Below, in pieces: positions 1 through 7,002 of a stretch of 7,002 nt of DNA. Position 1 is the stretch's first letter; every line of letters begins with the position of its first letter. A program made the position numbers and the translations under genes. The notes beneath the pieces are model-generated. The model saw only the letters and a program-made list of their open reading frames with translations, was not told the origin of the DNA and did no database searches. This DNA is from a virus (Duplodnaviria; Heunggongvirae; Uroviricota; Caudoviricetes), in IMG/VR virus record IMGVR_UViG_2778261354_000001, positions 1 to 7,002 of that record, one strand, 5' to 3'.

Positions 1-50
1 CGAACTGCTCCCCTGGCGCGTAGCACTGCCGACTGAATAACACATCCCCG

Positions 51-77
51 TCAATACGGTTCTTGCTGCACGCTTAC
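51..77. repeat. Left copy of a bipartite inverted repeat: TCAATACGGTTCT (51-63), 7-nt spacer TGCTGCA (64-70), CGCTTAC (71-77)
   Basis: Read directly from the sequence. The reverse complement of 6926-6952 is TCAATACGGTTCT-GACGAGT-CGCTTAC, so 20 of 20 arm positions match and only the 7-nt spacer differs. The copy lies in apparently non-coding DNA upstream of the HNH gene. Confidence 0.8.
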
Positions 78-108
78 TTCTATAGTGTCCAGTAAATCAA
101 ACAGGAAA

Positions 109-130
109 CTTGTCCAACGTGTTGGACAAG
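109..130. promoter_or_regulatory. Perfect dyad symmetry element CTTGTCCAAC-GT-GTTGGACAAG (10-bp arms, 2-nt centre), a candidate operator or activator site upstream of the HNH/late gene block
   Basis: Read directly: 109-118 is the exact reverse complement of 121-130. It contains TGT(111-113)-N12-ACA(126-128). It sits about 120 nt upstream of the HNH start. No T-run follows, so it is not an intrinsic terminator. Confidence 0.45.
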
Positions 131-250
131 CCTCTCCATTAGTGAGTTGTATTGATCACAACTCTACAAAGAATTCATTACTGGGTAGATGAAAATAGTT
201 TCACTATGAATGGAGGAGGCTATGTCGGTGGCTTCTTCATTGGAGTACAT

Positions 251-601
251 ATGCCCCCACGAATCCCACGCGCCTGCCGTAAGCGTGGATGTGCAGGTAC
301 AACCACAGACAGTTCTGGTTACTGCGATAAACATCGTGGCGAAGGATGGGTACAGCATCAACGCGGACTGAGCCGCCACCAGCGTGGCTATGGCTCGAAA
401 TGGGATGCCATACGTGCGCGCATACTGAAGCGTGATAATCATTTGTGTCAGAACTGCCTGCGCAATGGGAGAGCCGTTGAAGCCAGAACTGTGGACCACA
501 TCATTCCGAAAGCTCATGGTGGCACGGATGCAGACAGTAACCTGCAGAGTCTGTGCTGGCCCTGTCATAAAGCAAAAACAGCGCGCGAACGCATCAATTG
601 A
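251..601 (+). CDS. HNH homing-type endonuclease, phage packaging-associated
   Basis: Part of track ORF 152..601. The translation from ATG 251 (MPPRIPRACRKRGC...) carries Cys pairs (CRKRGC, CQNC, CWPC) and the HNH core: DHIIPKAHGG (His), SNLQ (Asn), CHKAKT (His). A GGAG at 242-245 lies 5 nt upstream of ATG 251. Alternative in-frame starts are ATG 206 and TTG 152. Its position immediately upstream of terS is typical of HK97-like cos phages. Confidence 0.85.
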   Translation: MPPRIPRACRKRGCAGTTTDSSGYCDKHRGEGWVQHQRGLSRHQRGYGSKWDAIRARILKRDNHLCQNCLRNGRAVEARTVDHIIPKAHGGTDADSNLQSLCWPCHKAKTARERIN

Positions 602-748
602 TAACAGTTCCCATCTGTAGGGGAGGGGCAGGTCAAATCTCTGCAACCCTGGCTGCTCAGTACCGCCGCCTGACCTTTCCTCGCATCGCCGCAGGTTCGA
701 AAACTTTTTTTTGGAATGTGATTAAATGATTGATAGGTAAAACCGATT
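602..748. other. HNH-terS intergenic region; putative cos / terminase recognition region
   Basis: A 147-bp non-coding gap with GC-rich tracts (GGGGAGGGGCAGGTC at 620-634; ACCGCCGCCTGACCT at about 662-676) and a T8 run at 705-712. The assignment is positional: in HK97-like cos phages the cos site lies between the HNH gene and terS. The exact cleavage site cannot be determined from sequence alone. Confidence 0.35.
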
Positions 749-1231
749 ATGTCTGGACCCCCGAAAACCCCGCCACGCCTGCATTTGATACGAGGTAACC
801 CCTCAAAGCGGCCAGTTAAAGACTCCAAAAAAACCGCTAAAAAGGATGAAAAAGGTCTCCCTAAAATTCCGCAACATTTAGGGGCGCAGGGGAAGTACTG
901 GTTCAGGCGAATGGCGGAAGAGCTGAATGCGGAAGGGATCATTTCTCAGCTCGATGCACGTGCGCTCGAGTTACTGGTGGAAGCCTACACCGAATACCGG
1001 CATCACTGCGAAATACTCGATGTTGAGGGTTATACCTACCGCACGGAAACGCAGAATGGCGATGTGCTGATCAAGGCACACCCGGCTGCTGCGATGAAGG
1101 CTGATGCCTGGAAGCGGATTCGGGCGATGCTTGCAGAGTTTGGTATGTCACCGGCAAGCCGGGCGAAAGTAAATACCGCCGGACCGGATGATGTTGATCC
1201 GCTGGCAGAGCTTTTAAAAGCGAGAGACTGA
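749..1231 (+). CDS. terS: Terminase small subunit, P27 family
   Basis: Track ORF 749..1231 (160 aa). It has a basic, Pro/Lys-rich N-terminus (MSGPPKTPPRLHLIRGNPSKRP...) followed by a helical region (GKYWFRRMAEELNAEGI...), which is characteristic of P27-type small terminases. Its TGA stop overlaps the terL ATG (TGATG at 1229-1233). Confidence 0.85.
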   Translation: MSGPPKTPPRLHLIRGNPSKRPVKDSKKTAKKDEKGLPKIPQHLGAQGKYWFRRMAEELNAEGIISQLDARALELLVEAYTEYRHHCEILDVEGYTYRTETQNGDVLIKAHPAAAMKADAWKRIRAMLAEFGMSPASRAKVNTAGPDDVDPLAELLKARD

Positions 1232-2988
1232 TGGCAAAAGTGGCTGACGGGATCCGCTACGCCGAACGTGTTGTTGCAGGAGAAATTGTTGCTGGCGAAT
1301 TTGTCCGTCTGGCCTGCCAGCGTTTTCTTGATGATCTGAAGTACGGCGAAGAGCGGGGGATTTATTTCAGTGAACCCCGTGCACAGCACATCCTTAATTT
1401 CTACAAATTTGTACCCCATGTGAAAGGGGCGCTGGCAGGTCAGCCCATTGAGTTGATGGACTGGCATGTGTTTATCCTCATTAATATTTTTGGTTTTGTC
1501 ATTCCGCTGGTGAATGAAGAAACCGGGGAAGTTGTCATGCGCAGCGATGGCAGTGGACGCCCGGTGATGGTGCGCCGGTTCCGGACAGCATACAACGAAG
1601 TTGCCCGTAAAAACGCAAAATCAACCCTGTCATCGGGTATCGGTCTGTATATGACGGGGGCAGATGGTGAAGGCGGGGCTGAGGTGTATTCAGCCGCAAC
1701 CACGCGTGACCAGGCCAGAATTGTGTTTGAAGACGCCAAAAATATGGTCAGAAAAGCCCGGTCGACACTCGGGCGGTTGTTTGATTTCAACAAGCTGGCG
1801 ATTTACCAGGAGCAGAGCGCATCAAAATTTGAACCGCTTTCCTCGGATGCAAACAACCTGGACGGTCTGAACATCCACTGCGCCATTATTGATGAGCTGC
1901 ATGCTCATAAAACCCGTGACGTGTGGGACGTTCTGGAAACGGCAACCGGTGCCCGTCTGCAGTCTCTGTTATTTGGCATCACCACGGCTGGCTTTAACAA
2001 GGAAGGGATTTGCTACGAGCAGCGCGATTACGCCATTAAGGTATTGCGAGGCTATAACAGCGACGTGGAGGGCGCGGTAAAAGACGACTCCTACTTTGCG
2101 ATCATTTACACGCTCGATGAGGGAGATGATCCGTTTGATGAAACGGTCTGGCAGAAAGCGAATCCTGGCCTGGGCATCTGTAAACGCTGGGATGATCTGC
2201 GTCGTCTGGCGAAAAAAGCGAAGGAGCAGGTCTCTGCGCGGGTGAATTTTTTTACCAAACACATGAATGTGTGGGTCACTGCCGAATCTGCCTGGATGGA
2301 TATGATTAAGTGGGAGAAGTGCGAATACATTGCTCCACAACATGAGCTGAAAACATATCCCATGTGGGTCGGCGTCGACCTTGCTCATAAGATTGATATC
2401 TGTGCGGCGGCAAAACTCTGGCGAACCGATAACGGACATGTTCATGCTGATTTTAAATTCTGGCTTCCGGAAGGACGGCTGGAACGATGCTCGCGGCAGC
2501 AGGCAGAACTTTACCGGAAGTGGGCGGAGATGGATAAGCTCATCCTGACGGATGGTGATGTTATCGATCATGCTCAGATAAAAAGTGACTTACTGGAATG
2601 GATTGGCGGTGAAAACCTCAGGGAACTGGGGTTTGACCCGTGGAGCGCAATGCAGTTCAGCCTGGCACTGGCTGAAGAAGGGATACCGCTGGTGGAGGTT
2701 CCGCAGACGGTCCGCAATCTGTCAGAGGCCATGAAGGAAACGGAATCACTGGTTTATGCCGGGCGTTTCCATCACAGCAATCATCCGGTCATGAACTGGA
2801 TGATGTCTAACGTTACTGTAAAACCGGACAAAAACGACAACATCTTCCCGAATAAATCCACGCCGGAAGCCAAAATCGACGGCCCTGTTGCGCTTTTTAC
2901 AGCCATGAGCCGCTTTCTGGTAAATGGCGGGGGCGTGAATGACTTTCTGTCCACGCTTGATCCTGATGAGGACCTGTTAATTCTGTGA
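1231..2988 (+). CDS. terL: Terminase large subunit (ATPase plus RNase H-like nuclease)
   Basis: Track ORF 1231..2988 (585 aa). The P-loop region is VARKNAKSTLSSGIGLY, Walker B is CAIIDELH, followed by GAEVYSAATTRDQARIVF; the C-terminal nuclease region contains VGVDLAHKID. The start is translationally coupled to terS. Confidence 0.95.
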   Translation: MAKVADGIRYAERVVAGEIVAGEFVRLACQRFLDDLKYGEERGIYFSEPRAQHILNFYKFVPHVKGALAGQPIELMDWHVFILINIFGFVIPLVNEETGEVVMRSDGSGRPVMVRRFRTAYNEVARKNAKSTLSSGIGLYMTGADGEGGAEVYSAATTRDQARIVFEDAKNMVRKARSTLGRLFDFNKLAIYQEQSASKFEPLSSDANNLDGLNIHCAIIDELHAHKTRDVWDVLETATGARLQSLLFGITTAGFNKEGICYEQRDYAIKVLRGYNSDVEGAVKDDSYFAIIYTLDEGDDPFDETVWQKANPGLGICKRWDDLRRLAKKAKEQVSARVNFFTKHMNVWVTAESAWMDMIKWEKCEYIAPQHELKTYPMWVGVDLAHKIDICAAAKLWRTDNGHVHADFKFWLPEGRLERCSRQQAELYRKWAEMDKLILTDGDVIDHAQIKSDLLEWIGGENLRELGFDPWSAMQFSLALAEEGIPLVEVPQTVRNLSEAMKETESLVYAGRFHHSNHPVMNWMMSNVTVKPDKNDNIFPNKSTPEAKIDGPVALFTAMSRFLVNGGGVNDFLSTLDPDEDLLIL

Positions 2989-3146
2989 AACAGCTTATTA
3001 CTGATATGACCGGGCTGATCGGTTTCGGTCTGCTCACTGCTGGCGTTTATCTGTATGCAGGTCTGCCAGCGTCTCTGATGCTGTCTGGCTGTTTGTTGCT
3101 GCTTTATGCACTGGTGGTGTCCATGAGGAGAAAACATGCTTCTTGA
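2985..3146 (+). CDS. Small hydrophobic protein (about 53 aa from GTG 2985, or about 46 aa from ATG 3006), predicted membrane protein, hypothetical
   Basis: Not in the ORF track. My own translation is (V/M)KQLITDMTGLIGFGLLTAGVYLYAGLPASLMLSGCLLLLYALVVSMRRKHAS*, with two hydrophobic stretches and a basic C-terminus. It is rich in CTG codons. The GTG start overlaps the terL stop (GTGA), and its stop at 3144-3146 overlaps the portal start at 3136. It fills the otherwise unexplained terL-portal gap. Confidence 0.4.
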   Translation: MKQLITDMTGLIGFGLLTAGVYLYAGLPASLMLSGCLLLLYALVVSMRRKHAS

Positions 3147-4362
3147 TGCTCTGTTTCGCAGTGAGCCTCTGGAAAATCCCTCGGTTCCGGTAACCGGAGA
3201 GGCTGCTGAGACGGATAATATTTTTGCCCGGGATGTGTATGTCAGTCCGGAAACATCCATGAAGCTGGCTGCTGTCTATGCCTGTATTTATGTTATTTCA
3301 TCCAGTGTGGCTCAGATGCCCCTGCATGTGATGCGAAAAACGAATGAGCATGTTCAGCCTGCACGCGATCATCCGTTGTTCTGGCTCGTTCATGATGAAC
3401 CGAATGCCTGGCAGACCAGCTATAAGTGGCGGGAACTGAAGCAGCGTCATGTGCTGGGGTGGGGCAATGGTTATACGTGGGTAAAACGTAATCGTCGTGG
3501 AGAGGTTACCAGCCTTGAATGCTGTATGCCATGGGAAACTACGTTACTTAACACCGGTGGGCGTCATACTTACGGGGTGTATAACGAAGAGGGTGCATTT
3601 GCGGTAAGTCCGGACGACATGATCCATATCAGGGCGCTGGGAAACAATCAGAAAATGGGACTGAGCCCGATCATGCAGCATGCTGAAACCATTGGTATGG
3701 GAATGAGTGGCCAGCAGTATACCAGCGCCTTTTTTAACGGTAATGCCCGTCCTGCCGGTATTATTTCTGTGAAAAATGAACTGAACGAACAAAGCTGGGG
3801 CAGGCTTAAAAATATGTGGCAGCGGGCGGTGACAGCGCTTCGCAGCCAGGAAAATAAAACCATGTTGCTGCCTGCGCAACTGGATTACCGCGCTCTGACA
3901 GTTTCTCCGGTGGATGCTCAGATCATTGATATGACCAAGCTGAACCGGTCGATGATTGCCGGGATTTTTAATGTCCCGGCGCACATGATTAATGACCTGG
4001 AAAAAGCCACATTTTCGAATATTACGCAGCAGGCGATTCAGTTTGTTCGCTACACGATGATGCCCTGGGTTGCGAACTGGGAGCAGGAGCTTAACCGTCG
4101 CCTGTTTACCCGTACAGAACGGGCTGCCGGGTATTACGTTCGTTTCAACCTCACGGGGTTGCTCCGTGGGACCCCACAGGAGCGTGCGCAGTTCTATCAC
4201 TTTGCCATTACAGATGGCTGGATGAGTCGGAATGAAGCCAGGGCATTTGAGGATATGAACCCGGTTGACGGTCTGGATGAAATGCTGGTCAGCGTAAATG
4301 CAGCAAATCCGTTGAATAACTTTAAAGATACGAAAGGCAAAGAGGAAAAGAACGATGAATGA
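3136..4362 (+). CDS. Portal protein, HK97 family
   Basis: Track ORF 3136..4362 (408 aa). Its size, position immediately after terL, and sequence character (e.g. ...NRSMIAGIFNVPAHMINDLEKATFSNITQQAIQFVRYTMMPW...) fit HK97-type portals. A GAGGAG at 3125-3130 lies 5 nt upstream of the ATG. Confidence 0.93.
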   Translation: MLLDALFRSEPLENPSVPVTGEAAETDNIFARDVYVSPETSMKLAAVYACIYVISSSVAQMPLHVMRKTNEHVQPARDHPLFWLVHDEPNAWQTSYKWRELKQRHVLGWGNGYTWVKRNRRGEVTSLECCMPWETTLLNTGGRHTYGVYNEEGAFAVSPDDMIHIRALGNNQKMGLSPIMQHAETIGMGMSGQQYTSAFFNGNARPAGIISVKNELNEQSWGRLKNMWQRAVTALRSQENKTMLLPAQLDYRALTVSPVDAQIIDMTKLNRSMIAGIFNVPAHMINDLEKATFSNITQQAIQFVRYTMMPWVANWEQELNRRLFTRTERAAGYYVRFNLTGLLRGTPQERAQFYHFAITDGWMSRNEARAFEDMNPVDGLDEMLVSVNAANPLNNFKDTKGKEEKNDE

Positions 4363-4954
4363 CCGTGAAACGCGCTGTTACAGCGGGGAGGTGCGGGCGG
4401 AACAATATGATAATGCCCCGACCCACATTCTGGGGTATGGCTCGGTATTTAACAGTCGTTCAGAACCTCTGTGGGGATTTCGTGAAATCATCAAGCCGGG
4501 GGCTTTTGATGATGTACTGAATGATGATGTACGTGGCTTGTTTAATCATGATCCTAATTTCATTCTCGGACGAAGTTCTGCCGGCACGTTGTCATTGTCG
4601 GTGGATGAACGCGGTTTACGTTATGACATTGTTGCACCGGATACTCCGACTATTTGTGACCTGGTGCTGTCTCCAATGTTGCGTGGTGACATTAATCAGT
4701 CCTCGTTCGCGTTTCGTGTCGCCCGTGACGGAGAGAGCTGGTATGAAGACGACGAGGGGATTGTTATCCGGGAAATCACGCGCATTTCTCGTCTGTATGA
4801 CGTCAGCCCGGTGACATATCCGGCCTATCAGGACGCAGACTCTGGTGTCCGCTCAATGAAAGCCTGGCAGGAAGCGCGGGCGAGTGGTGCGCTGAAGAAA
4901 GCTGTTAACGAACGAATGGCGCGTGAGCGTCTTTTGACCCTTCTTAATGCATAA
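4355..4954 (+). CDS. Prohead maturation serine protease, HK97 family (S78/U35-type)
   Basis: Track ORF 4355..4954 (199 aa). It carries the HK97-protease-like motifs LFNHD (candidate catalytic His) and GDINQSSFAF (candidate catalytic Ser). It overlaps the portal stop by 8 nt (ATGAATGA) and sits directly upstream of the capsid gene. Confidence 0.92.
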   Translation: MNDRETRCYSGEVRAEQYDNAPTHILGYGSVFNSRSEPLWGFREIIKPGAFDDVLNDDVRGLFNHDPNFILGRSSAGTLSLSVDERGLRYDIVAPDTPTICDLVLSPMLRGDINQSSFAFRVARDGESWYEDDEGIVIREITRISRLYDVSPVTYPAYQDADSGVRSMKAWQEARASGALKKAVNERMARERLLTLLNA

Positions 4955-4968
4955 GGATACTACTGACG

Positions 4969-6186
4969 ATGAAACTTCATGAGATGAAGCAAAAACGAAA
5001 CACCATTGCAAAGGATATGCGTGCACTGCATGAAAAAATTGGTGATAACGCATGGACTGATGAGCAACGGGCAGAGTGGAACAGGGCGAAAGCTGAGCTG
5101 GATGCGCTGGATGAGCAAATCGCCCGTGAAGAAGAGTTGCGCCGTCAGGATCAGGCATATGTGGATGAGTCCGGGCCGGAAGAGCGCCAGAATAATGAGG
5201 CGGAGAACGGGAAAAAGGCGGTGGAAGAGAAGCGTGCTGCGGCATTTAACCGTTTTCTGCGTGCCGGATTTGCAGAACTGAATGCTGAAGAGCGTAATCT
5301 GATGCGTGAACTGCGGGCTCAGAGTGTAACAACGGATTCTCAGGGCGGATATACGGTGCCCACGCAGATGCGTAACAAAATCATTGACACCATGAAGGCT
5401 TATGGCGGGATTGCCAGTGTGGCGCAACTTCTGACCACATCAACCGGGCAGGATATCACCTGGTCAACGTCTGATGGCACGACTGAAGAGGGCGAACTGC
5501 TGGCGGAAAATACAGCCGCAACGGAACAGGATGTGACGTTCGGGACCGCTATTCTGGGGGCTAAAAAGCTGTCATCAAAAATAATTCGTGTGTCCAATGA
5601 GCTGCTCCAGGACAGTGGGGTGGATATTGAATCTTATCTGGCAAACCGTATTGCCCAGCGTATTGGTCGTGGAGAGGCAAAATATCTGGTTCAGGGGACC
5701 GGAACGGGATCACCGTTACAGCCAAAAGGGCTGGCAGCGTCGGTGACGGGAACCATCCAGACTGCAGCCTCTGCCGCTTTCACCTGGAAAGAAATGAATG
5801 CCCTGAAACATGCCATTGATCCGGCATATCGTGGTGGGCCGAAATACCGCTGGGCATTCAATGATGCCACATTGCAGACTATTGAAGAGATGGAGGATGG
5901 ACAGAAACGCCCGTTATGGCTGCCGGATATTGCAGGCGGTACGCCGGCTACTGTGCTGGGGATCCCTTATGTTATTGATCAGGCTATTGACGGGATTGGT
6001 ACCGGAAAAAAATTCATTTTCCTGGGGGATTTCAACCGCTTTATCATTCGCCGCGTTACTTATATGGAACTGAAACGTCTGGTTGAGCGTTATGCTGAGT
6101 TTGATCAGGTGGCATTTCTGGCTTTCCATCGTTTTGACTGTGTGCTGGAAGATGTGGCAGCCATCAAGGCGCTCACTGGCAAATAA
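4969..6186 (+). CDS. Major capsid protein, HK97 fold, with N-terminal delta (scaffolding) domain
   Basis: Track ORF 4969..6186 (405 aa). The N-terminal ~100 aa are highly charged and coiled-coil-like (delta domain), followed by a typical HK97-type body (GGYTVPTQ..., ...LWLPDIAGG...). An AAGGA at 4953-4957 precedes the ATG. The gene follows the protease as in HK97. Confidence 0.95.
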   Translation: MKLHEMKQKRNTIAKDMRALHEKIGDNAWTDEQRAEWNRAKAELDALDEQIAREEELRRQDQAYVDESGPEERQNNEAENGKKAVEEKRAAAFNRFLRAGFAELNAEERNLMRELRAQSVTTDSQGGYTVPTQMRNKIIDTMKAYGGIASVAQLLTTSTGQDITWSTSDGTTEEGELLAENTAATEQDVTFGTAILGAKKLSSKIIRVSNELLQDSGVDIESYLANRIAQRIGRGEAKYLVQGTGTGSPLQPKGLAASVTGTIQTAASAAFTWKEMNALKHAIDPAYRGGPKYRWAFNDATLQTIEEMEDGQKRPLWLPDIAGGTPATVLGIPYVIDQAIDGIGTGKKFIFLGDFNRFIIRRVTYMELKRLVERYAEFDQVAFLAFHRFDCVLEDVAAIKALTGK

Positions 6187-6207
6187 CCACTCGTTGTTCA
6201 GTTACAG

Positions 6208-6229
6208 ACCGCGCCGACGCGGTTTTTTT
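6208..6229 (+). terminator. Rho-independent terminator downstream of the capsid gene
   Basis: Stem ACCGCG (6208-6213) / CGCGGT (6218-6223) with loop CCGA, followed by a T7 run at 6223-6229. It begins 22 nt after the capsid stop codon. Confidence 0.6.
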
Positions 6230-6231
6230 AT

Positions 6232-6251
6232 GCCCGCACAGTGTTGCGGGC
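6232..6251 (+). promoter_or_regulatory. Second hairpin (7-bp stem GCCCGCA/TGCGGGC, 6-nt loop) abutting the ribosome-binding site of the connector gene
   Basis: Read directly: 6232-6238 is the reverse complement of 6245-6251. The 3' stem base C6251 is the first base of the CAGGAG Shine-Dalgarno (6251-6256) for ATG 6263. Confidence 0.4.
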
Positions 6252-6262
6252 AGGAGTTTCTG

Positions 6263-6580
6263 ATGGCAGCAATAGTGGAAAAACTCAGGGCGCAGTGCCG
6301 TATTGATACAGATGATGCAACTGATGATGAGTTACTGATGCTGTATTTCCGGGCTGCCTGCCGCAAGGCAGAAAATTTTATCAACCGTAAGCTTTATGAG
6401 GAGACGGTGCCGGAAGGTGATCCTGAAGGGGTGCTTATAGCTGATGATGTTTTGCTGGCGCTCATGTTGCTGGTCGGGCACTGGTACGAAAACCGGGAAA
6501 ATTCCTCAGATGTCAGCAAGGCACCAGTCCCGTTTGGTTTTTCTTCTCTGCTGGAGCCTTATCGTTTTATTCCTTTGTAG
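6263..6580 (+). CDS. Head-tail connector protein (gp6-like)
   Basis: This is the in-frame 3' part of track ORF 6083..6580. The ATG at 6263 is preceded by CAGGAG at 6251-6256 and lies downstream of the terminator. The 105-aa product (MAAIVEKLRAQCRIDTDDATDDELLMLYFRAACRKAENFINRKLYEE...) has the acidic N-terminal region typical of gp6-like connectors. The track's upstream extension would span the terminator and is rejected. Confidence 0.8.
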   Translation: MAAIVEKLRAQCRIDTDDATDDELLMLYFRAACRKAENFINRKLYEETVPEGDPEGVLIADDVLLALMLLVGHWYENRENSSDVSKAPVPFGFSSLLEPYRFIPL

Positions 6581-6588
6581 GAGGAGGC

Positions 6589-7002
6589 ATGCAGGCGGGC
6601 AGATTACGTGATCGCGTAATTATTCTGAATGTCACCACCGCCCGCTCTCCGTCAGGGCATCCGGTGGAGACGGTGACGGAGGGAGCTACCGTATGGGCAG
6701 AAGTTAAGGGTATCAGCGGGAGGGAGATAATCTCAGGCGGAGCAGAAACCGCTCAGGCTACGGTCAGAGTCTGGATGAGATTCCGGCGAGATGTAACAGC
6801 AACTTCATGTCTAAAAGTGCTGACCGGTGCATTTAAAGGGGCCATTCTGGGTATAGAAGGTCCACCAATACCGGATGCACGCGCTACCCGGCTTGAAATA
6901 CTCTGCAGCCTGAAGGGGAATGTGTGTAAGCGACTCGTCAGAACCGTATTGATATTTACTGAGAGCTCAGATCAACTTTCCAGGGCAACAGATCGCGTAC
7001 CC
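6589..7002 (+). CDS. Head closure / head-tail joining protein (HK97 gp9/SPP1 gp16-like); 3' end not reached within the window
   Basis: Not in the ORF track because there is no stop codon in the window. GGAGGAGG at 6581-6588 precedes ATG 6589. My translation is MQAGRLRDRVIILNVTTARSPSGHPVETVTEGATVWAEVKGISGREIISGGAETAQATVRVWMRFRRDVTATSCLKVLTGAFKGAILGIEGPPIPDARATRLEILCSLKGNVCKRLVRTVLIFTESSDQLSRATDRV..., which follows the head-closure family pattern. The frame stays open to position 7002. Confidence 0.7.
   Translation, partial: MQAGRLRDRVIILNVTTARSPSGHPVETVTEGATVWAEVKGISGREIISGGAETAQATVRVWMRFRRDVTATSCLKVLTGAFKGAILGIEGPPIPDARATRLEILCSLKGNVCKRLVRTVLIFTESSDQLSRATDRVP
6926..6952. repeat. Right copy of the bipartite inverted repeat: GTAAGCG (6926-6932), 7-nt spacer ACTCGTC (6933-6939), AGAACCGTATTGA (6940-6952)
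   Basis: Read directly: this is the reverse-complement partner of 51-77, with 13/13 and 7/7 arm identity and a different spacer. It lies within the open reading frame of the head-closure gene, at roughly codons 113-121. Confidence 0.8.

Follow-up and report, generated by a model that had tools for sequence, protein, structure and literature searches.

Introduction

Head-closure proteins of the Phage_HCP family, represented by the profiles PF05521 and TIGR01563 and by the NMR structure 2KZ4 (112 aa), are single-domain proteins of approximately 105-115 aa. The closest described relatives of the locus analyzed here are the intact prophage of E. coli EC32 and vB_EcoS-813R8 (ON470619.1), a temperate phage obtained by induction. 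The head-closure gene of EC32 has a length of 339 bp and encodes a 112-aa protein ending in ...SLKGNV. Its TGA stop codon shares bases with the start codon of the gene that follows, a member of the HK97-gp10 family (hereafter gp10-like), in a TGATG arrangement.

Insertion sequences (IS) of the IS66 family encode the DDE transposase TnpC together with the accessory proteins TnpA and TnpB. Terminal inverted repeats that begin with GTAAGCG are a hallmark of the family. IS66 members are multi-ORF elements of ~2.7-2.8 kb associated with 8-bp repeats (PMC3281130). In keeping with these values, three related copies in prophages of the type studied here are each flanked by an 8-bp target duplication. 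The annotated ISCro1 of E. coli DETEC-E223 (NZ_CP116188.1; L004 12742-15440) is 2699 bp long and interrupts codon 76 of the head-closure gene between two copies of TCTGAAAG. In strain 203740, where the capsid gene is followed by an IS21-like ISEc62, an ISCro1 copy (L001 10081-12779) lies in the gp10-like gene and has duplicated CATCCATT. In E. coli PRO_A-1028-6W-A_ESBL (NZ_CM136177.1) another family member, ISEc22, lies at the end of the head-closure gene and is flanked on both sides by GAATGTGT (L003 12842-12849 and 15305-15312). An ISEc23 is annotated near terminase and capsid genes in NZ_CP159917.1.

The window, that is, the whole 7002-nt stretch of viral DNA analyzed here, contains a head-closure reading frame that reaches the right edge with no stop codon. 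An initial annotation, based on the sequence alone, had linked the C-terminal part of this frame to one arm of an inverted repeat. We compared the window with intact prophages, annotated IS elements, and head-closure homologues.

Results

Positions 78-6925 of the window comprise the head module of an HK97-like temperate E. coli phage or prophage, as identified from ORFs, profile matches, and the RefSeq annotation of the same genes. All genes of the module are on the plus strand. They encode an HNH endonuclease (251-601), a P27-family small terminase (749-1231), the large terminase (1231-2988), the portal (3136-4362), the prohead protease (4355-4954), the major capsid protein (4969-6186), a gp6-like head-tail connector (6263-6580; PF05135, and TIGR01560 with 78.3 bits), and the head-closure protein (6589-6924; PF05521 and TIGR01563). 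The HNH gene lies just 5' of the small terminase gene, an arrangement shared with HK97-type cos phages. Its NCBIfam similarities are all sub-threshold and are to the HNH domains of IscB, ZorE, and HlpB. A 53-aa ORF at 2985-3146 (+) bridges the large terminase and portal genes, overlapping the last bases of the former and the first bases of the latter. It corresponds to the RefSeq hypothetical protein WP_000811487.1 and has no NCBIfam match. The intergenic DNA upstream of the HNH gene contains a near-perfect palindrome at 109-130 (CTTGTCCAAC-GT-GTTGGACAAG) with 10-bp arms and a 2-nt spacer, separated by 31 nt from the IS end on the left that is described below. The palindrome may bind a protein or form the base of a terminator.

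Over positions 78-6925 the window differs from the intact EC32 prophage by 1 mismatch in 6848 nt. The single difference is at position 443, a T in the window and a C in EC32, and is synonymous in a Leu codon of the HNH gene; the phage part is thus almost clonal with that of EC32, a Chinese urinary isolate. The phage vB_EcoS-813R8 is 99.5% identical over the same interval. In both relatives, unlike in the window, the head module has no flanking IS. A BLAST search of 5426 complete E. coli genomes found the prophage part in 665, and genomes with an intact prophage match the window from 77 to 6926 only.

The frame that begins with the ATG at 6589 is open for 138 codons up to position 7002, which is the window edge, as had been noted. 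Residues 1-107 match Pfam family PF05521 with 71.9 bits (cut-off 25), residues 8-107 match TIGR01563 (gp16_SPP1) with 38.5 bits (cut-off 20.6), and 2KZ4 aligns over residues 1-107. Residues 1-112 are identical to the EC32 protein, and this exact 112-aa sequence is present on 92 public contigs. A search of 5.8 billion protein clusters found 281 homologues, of which 120 are listed, nearly all with a length of 112 aa. None of these 120 aligns past residue 112, so that query coverage is at most 81% (112/138). Residues 1-112 of the window therefore represent a typical full-length member of the family, encoded directly 3' of the gp6-like connector gene, and the native coding sequence of 112 codons is complete. 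What sets the window apart is the C-terminal tail of the ORF, which is IS-encoded and has no counterpart in the family, and the sequence that comes next: an IS in the window, in place of the gp10-like gene of intact relatives.

These alignments also refine where homology ends. The initial annotation had placed the end of the family-like sequence at an ILC tripeptide immediately before the repeat and had regarded the residues that follow as less typical. Homology does end just before the repeat, with family matches stopping at residue 107 and the native protein at residue 112, ahead of position 6926. The ILC tripeptide is not that end, as it is residue 106 and the native protein runs on to V112 (6922-6924). 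Accordingly, the first three residues of the less typical string, GNV, are native, and only the remainder is IS-derived.

Alignment with EC32 and strain 203740 shows that native sequence breaks after GAATGTGT (6918-6925), placing the junction at 6925/6926. The native sequence reads ...GGGAATGTGTGATGGATTTC... and the window reads ...GGGAATGTGTGTAAGCGACTCG...; in codons, GGG AAT GTG TGA TGG ATT TC is replaced by GGG AAT GTG TGT AAG CGA CTC G. The final base of GAATGTGT, the same 8 bp that are duplicated in PRO_A-1028-6W-A_ESBL, is the T of the native TGA. The stop codon that overlaps the gp10-like ATG has thereby been destroyed, and positions 6925-6927 (+) read TGT, encoding Cys113. A junction was among the options offered by the initial annotation, and phage DNA is indeed joined here to foreign DNA. 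Its proposal that the native 3' end had been replaced is not borne out; all 112 native codons are kept and only the stop is lost, as TGA has become TGT.

The DNA to the right of the junction (6926-7002, minus strand) is the tnpC-proximal end of ISCro1, an IS66-family element, and is 100% identical over 77 nt to L004 12742-12818 in the annotated copy of DETEC-E223. The shared end includes the GTAAGCG terminus at 6926-6932, the remainder of the terminal inverted repeat (6926-6952, minus strand; GTAAGCGACTCGTCAGAACCGTATTGA), and the C-terminus of TnpC, of which the last 14 full codons and the stop (...VRDLLPWKVDLSSQ), as well as the last two bases of a 15th codon that the window edge truncates, lie at 6956-7002 on the minus strand and agree with the annotated protein. 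The insertion sites of the two ISCro1 copies differ: codon 76 (TCTGAAAG) in DETEC-E223, as opposed to the stop codon of the same gene (GAATGTGT) in the window, where 77 nt of the element are visible. On the plus strand, the continuation of the head-closure frame from 6925 to 7002 reads CKRLVRTVLIFTESSDQLSRATDRVP... and is antisense to tnpC. No homologue covers these residues.

The left edge of the window also consists of an IS end. Positions 1-77 (+) are the right, tnpC-proximal end of an ISEc22-like element of the IS66 family, with 98.7% identity to the annotated ISEc22 end at L003 15227-15304 in a 78-nt alignment that contains one gap. This stub holds the last 12 codons and the stop of tnpC (2-40, +; ELLPWRVALPTE), the translation of which matches the TnpC C-terminus, and the left terminal inverted repeat (51-77, +), which ends in CGCTTAC at 71-77. 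The same termini are found in both reference copies. The ISEc22 copy of PRO_A-1028-6W-A_ESBL has a frameshifted tnpC (L003 13728-15267), with a one-base gap relative to positions 1-77 of the window in the last codons, and is probably immobile. The left stub is followed at 78-85 by TTCTATAG, the presumed 8-bp target duplication, in the intergenic region between iss and the HNH gene, where native sequence reads ...CTGTCC/TTCTATAGTGTCC. The second copy of TTCTATAG would be located at the other end of this IS, outside the window. The left IS is a second element, different from ISCro1, positioned upstream of the HNH and terminase genes. The window holds the terminal 77 nt of each IS, and the full tnpA-tnpB-tnpC gene structure is taken from the reference copies. 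These alignments establish both breakpoints and the identity of both IS ends.

The inverted repeat formed by positions 51-77 and 6926-6952 is 27 nt long and 78% complementary. Its right arm extends from the second base of codon 113 to the first base of codon 122 of the head-closure frame, close to the codons 113-121 given initially. Approximately 0.32 such pairs are expected per 7 kb, and other 24-25-nt pairs of similar quality occur in the window. What makes this repeat meaningful is that both arms are located exactly where identity to intact prophages ends (77/78 and 6925/6926), and that both stubs are 98.7-100% identical to annotated IS66-family ends. The repeat is the family-level similarity between the ends of two different IS66 elements whose tnpC ends face the phage segment. 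It had not been recognized initially as the terminal inverted repeats of two such elements. A composite transposon built from two copies of one IS was considered and rejected, as the left element is ISEc22-like and the right element is ISCro1; the 78% similarity extends over 27 nt and the two diverge fully further in.

Both stubs are exactly 77 nt long (1-77 and 6926-7002). De Bruijn assembly with k=77 leaves stubs of this kind on contigs that are bounded by repeats. This suggests that the 7002-nt window is an entire short-read contig, assembled with k=77 and broken at multi-copy IS66-family elements. The absence of a stop from the window would then follow from a contig break at a repeat and need not involve any biology.

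The insertion in PRO_A-1028-6W-A_ESBL provides a precedent at the identical octamer. As in the window, the same 8-bp target was used, the stop was lost, and the frame continues as ...GNV-CKR.... The gp10 and tail genes are present 3' of ISEc22, and the head-closure protein is annotated in RefSeq with 129 aa, ending in ...GNVCKRRLSTVWQILKFLRE (WP_458681443.1). The two cases differ in the element itself, since ISEc22 is another IS66 member of 2455 bp, inserted in the opposite orientation so that its tnpA-proximal end is beside the head-closure gene, and in the length of the tail, which is 17 aa with ISEc22 and predicted to be 36 aa in the window. Given the different element and the opposite orientation, the two are independent events at the same 8 bp. 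By analogy, the ISEc22 precedent supports a simple insertion in the window.

We searched for further instances of the junctions and of the fusion proteins. BLAST searches with both junctions in the 5426 complete E. coli genomes and in PLSDB plasmids returned separate phage and IS parts only. Neither the exact right junction (as a 40-mer) nor a generic 25-mer representing an IS66 end at this site had a match in GTDB species representatives, IMG/VR, or JGI metagenomes, and the expected far-side junction (CGSTTAC followed by GAATGTGTGATGG...) and the left junction had no matches in the collections searched. By exact look-up, the 138-aa partial ORF and the predicted 148-aa fusion are absent from a collection of 15 billion proteins, as is the C74 version of the 129-aa ISEc22 fusion. 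Nine longer homologues (P0002, P0007, P0010, P0014, P0016, P0017, P0058, P0099, and P0112) contain no further ...GNVCKR fusion; they are frameshift fusions with neighboring genes or other disruptions.

Discussion

We consider it very likely that an ISCro1 element inserted at GAATGTGT in the late operon of an HK97-like E. coli prophage, with loss of the head-closure stop codon and read-through into the IS. The last base of the target octamer is also the first base of the TGA stop, and any IS66 end (GTAAGCG) placed behind it creates TGT-AAG-CG., which encodes Cys-Lys-Arg and leaves the frame open. Translation would then continue into the IS end, in antisense orientation relative to tnpC. No stop is visible in the window because it ends 77 nt into the IS. 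When the ISCro1 copy of either L004 or L001 is appended to the window, a stop is reached at codon 149 in both cases, 33 nt past the window edge, and the predicted product is 112 native residues plus 36 (148 aa). The initial suggestion of a fusion or extension is correct to the extent that the ORF has been lengthened by read-through.

The right IS is presumably full-length. A simple insertion would give an ISCro1 of ~2.7 kb, with its genes in the order tnpC-tnpB-tnpA on the minus strand, ending in ...GAGCCGGTTAC and followed by GAATGTGT-GATGGATTTCAG with the gp10-like and tail genes. The far flank of the right IS would accordingly read GAATGTGT-GATGGATTTC in the gp10-like gene, and the gp10-like and tail genes would be found ~2.7 kb further on, behind the second copy of GAATGTGT. 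At the left IS, a simple insertion would give ...GCATTCTGTCC-TTCTATAG before the tnpA-proximal end, with iss upstream.

The principal alternative is that the IS elements mediated a rearrangement, whether a deletion, an inversion, or a translocation, such that the gp10-like and tail genes no longer follow and a 6.85-kb head module has been left isolated between IS elements, possibly mobilizable in the manner of a composite transposon. The head module is indeed bracketed by inverted IS66-family ends with the tnpC-proximal ends directed inward, both junctions are private to this sequence, and the second copies of the target duplications would lie outside the window. However, the two elements are different, with terminal repeats that are 78% alike over 27 nt and reference copies of 2455 and 2699 bp, and this difference between the ISEc22-like element and ISCro1 makes recombination between them or joint transposition unlikely. 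The right breakpoint also matches to the base that of a proven simple insertion of a related IS in PRO_A-1028-6W-A_ESBL, and all other IS66 copies examined in this prophage are simple insertions with an 8-bp duplication. We therefore regard a rearrangement as unlikely.

It is considerably less probable still that the junctions are an assembly artefact, in which repeats gave rise to chimeric phage-IS contig ends while the actual genome retains an intact gene. Stubs of this length are characteristic of de Bruijn assembly with k=77, and neither junction was found in any other public sequence searched. However, the terminal k-mer overlap of a de Bruijn contig represents a real adjacency that is backed by spanning reads. 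Nor would a chimera be expected to start, at both ends, exactly where an IS terminal repeat (GTAAGCG) starts, or to fall on an octamer independently proven to be a target of the IS66 family. A mixed population in which the insertion is present in some cells only is possible. That the ORF represents a natural long form of the head-closure protein, or a functional fusion of domains, has almost no chance of being correct, because the 26 further codons that are open within the window, an openness that has a probability of ~0.29 ((61/64)^26) and is thus unremarkable on its own, are identical at the DNA level (100%) to the antisense of the ISCro1 tnpC 3' end and terminal repeat, and because the 120 listed homologues of the 281 stop at residue 112.

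With ISCro1 inserted at the stop codon, the gp10-like gene would be uncoupled from the head-closure gene with which it has a stop-start overlap, and the head and tail genes would be split by an IS of ~2.7 kb in the opposite orientation. The AAGGGG stretch 5' of the gp10-like ATG would be shifted to the other side of the IS. The prophage is probably defective, as its late operon appears to be interrupted between the genes for completing the head and those for attaching the tail, and another IS is located upstream of the terminase genes. The event is ordinary prophage decay, of a kind already known, and not a new protein variant. For annotation, the locus should be described as a head-closure gene of 112 aa that has lost its stop codon to an inserted ISCro1, and not as a long variant or a fusion protein.

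The locus also illustrates how an IS that starts with GTAAGCG turns a stop codon interrupted after its T into a Cys-Lys-Arg read-through. That two IS66 members used one 8-bp target in independent strains offers a modest clue to target choice, consisting of two events only. Our literature search on IS66 target specificity yielded general descriptions of the family, and we know of no target preference described for it. The four targets (GAATGTGT, TCTGAAAG, CATCCATT, and the presumed TTCTATAG) share no obvious consensus. That GAATGTGT, where the head-closure stop and the gp10-like start overlap, is a preferred IS66 target is a tentative and rather unlikely idea on the basis of these two events. 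If true, IS66 elements may choose their targets by a cue in sequence or structure, and this prophage would be inactivated repeatedly at one point.
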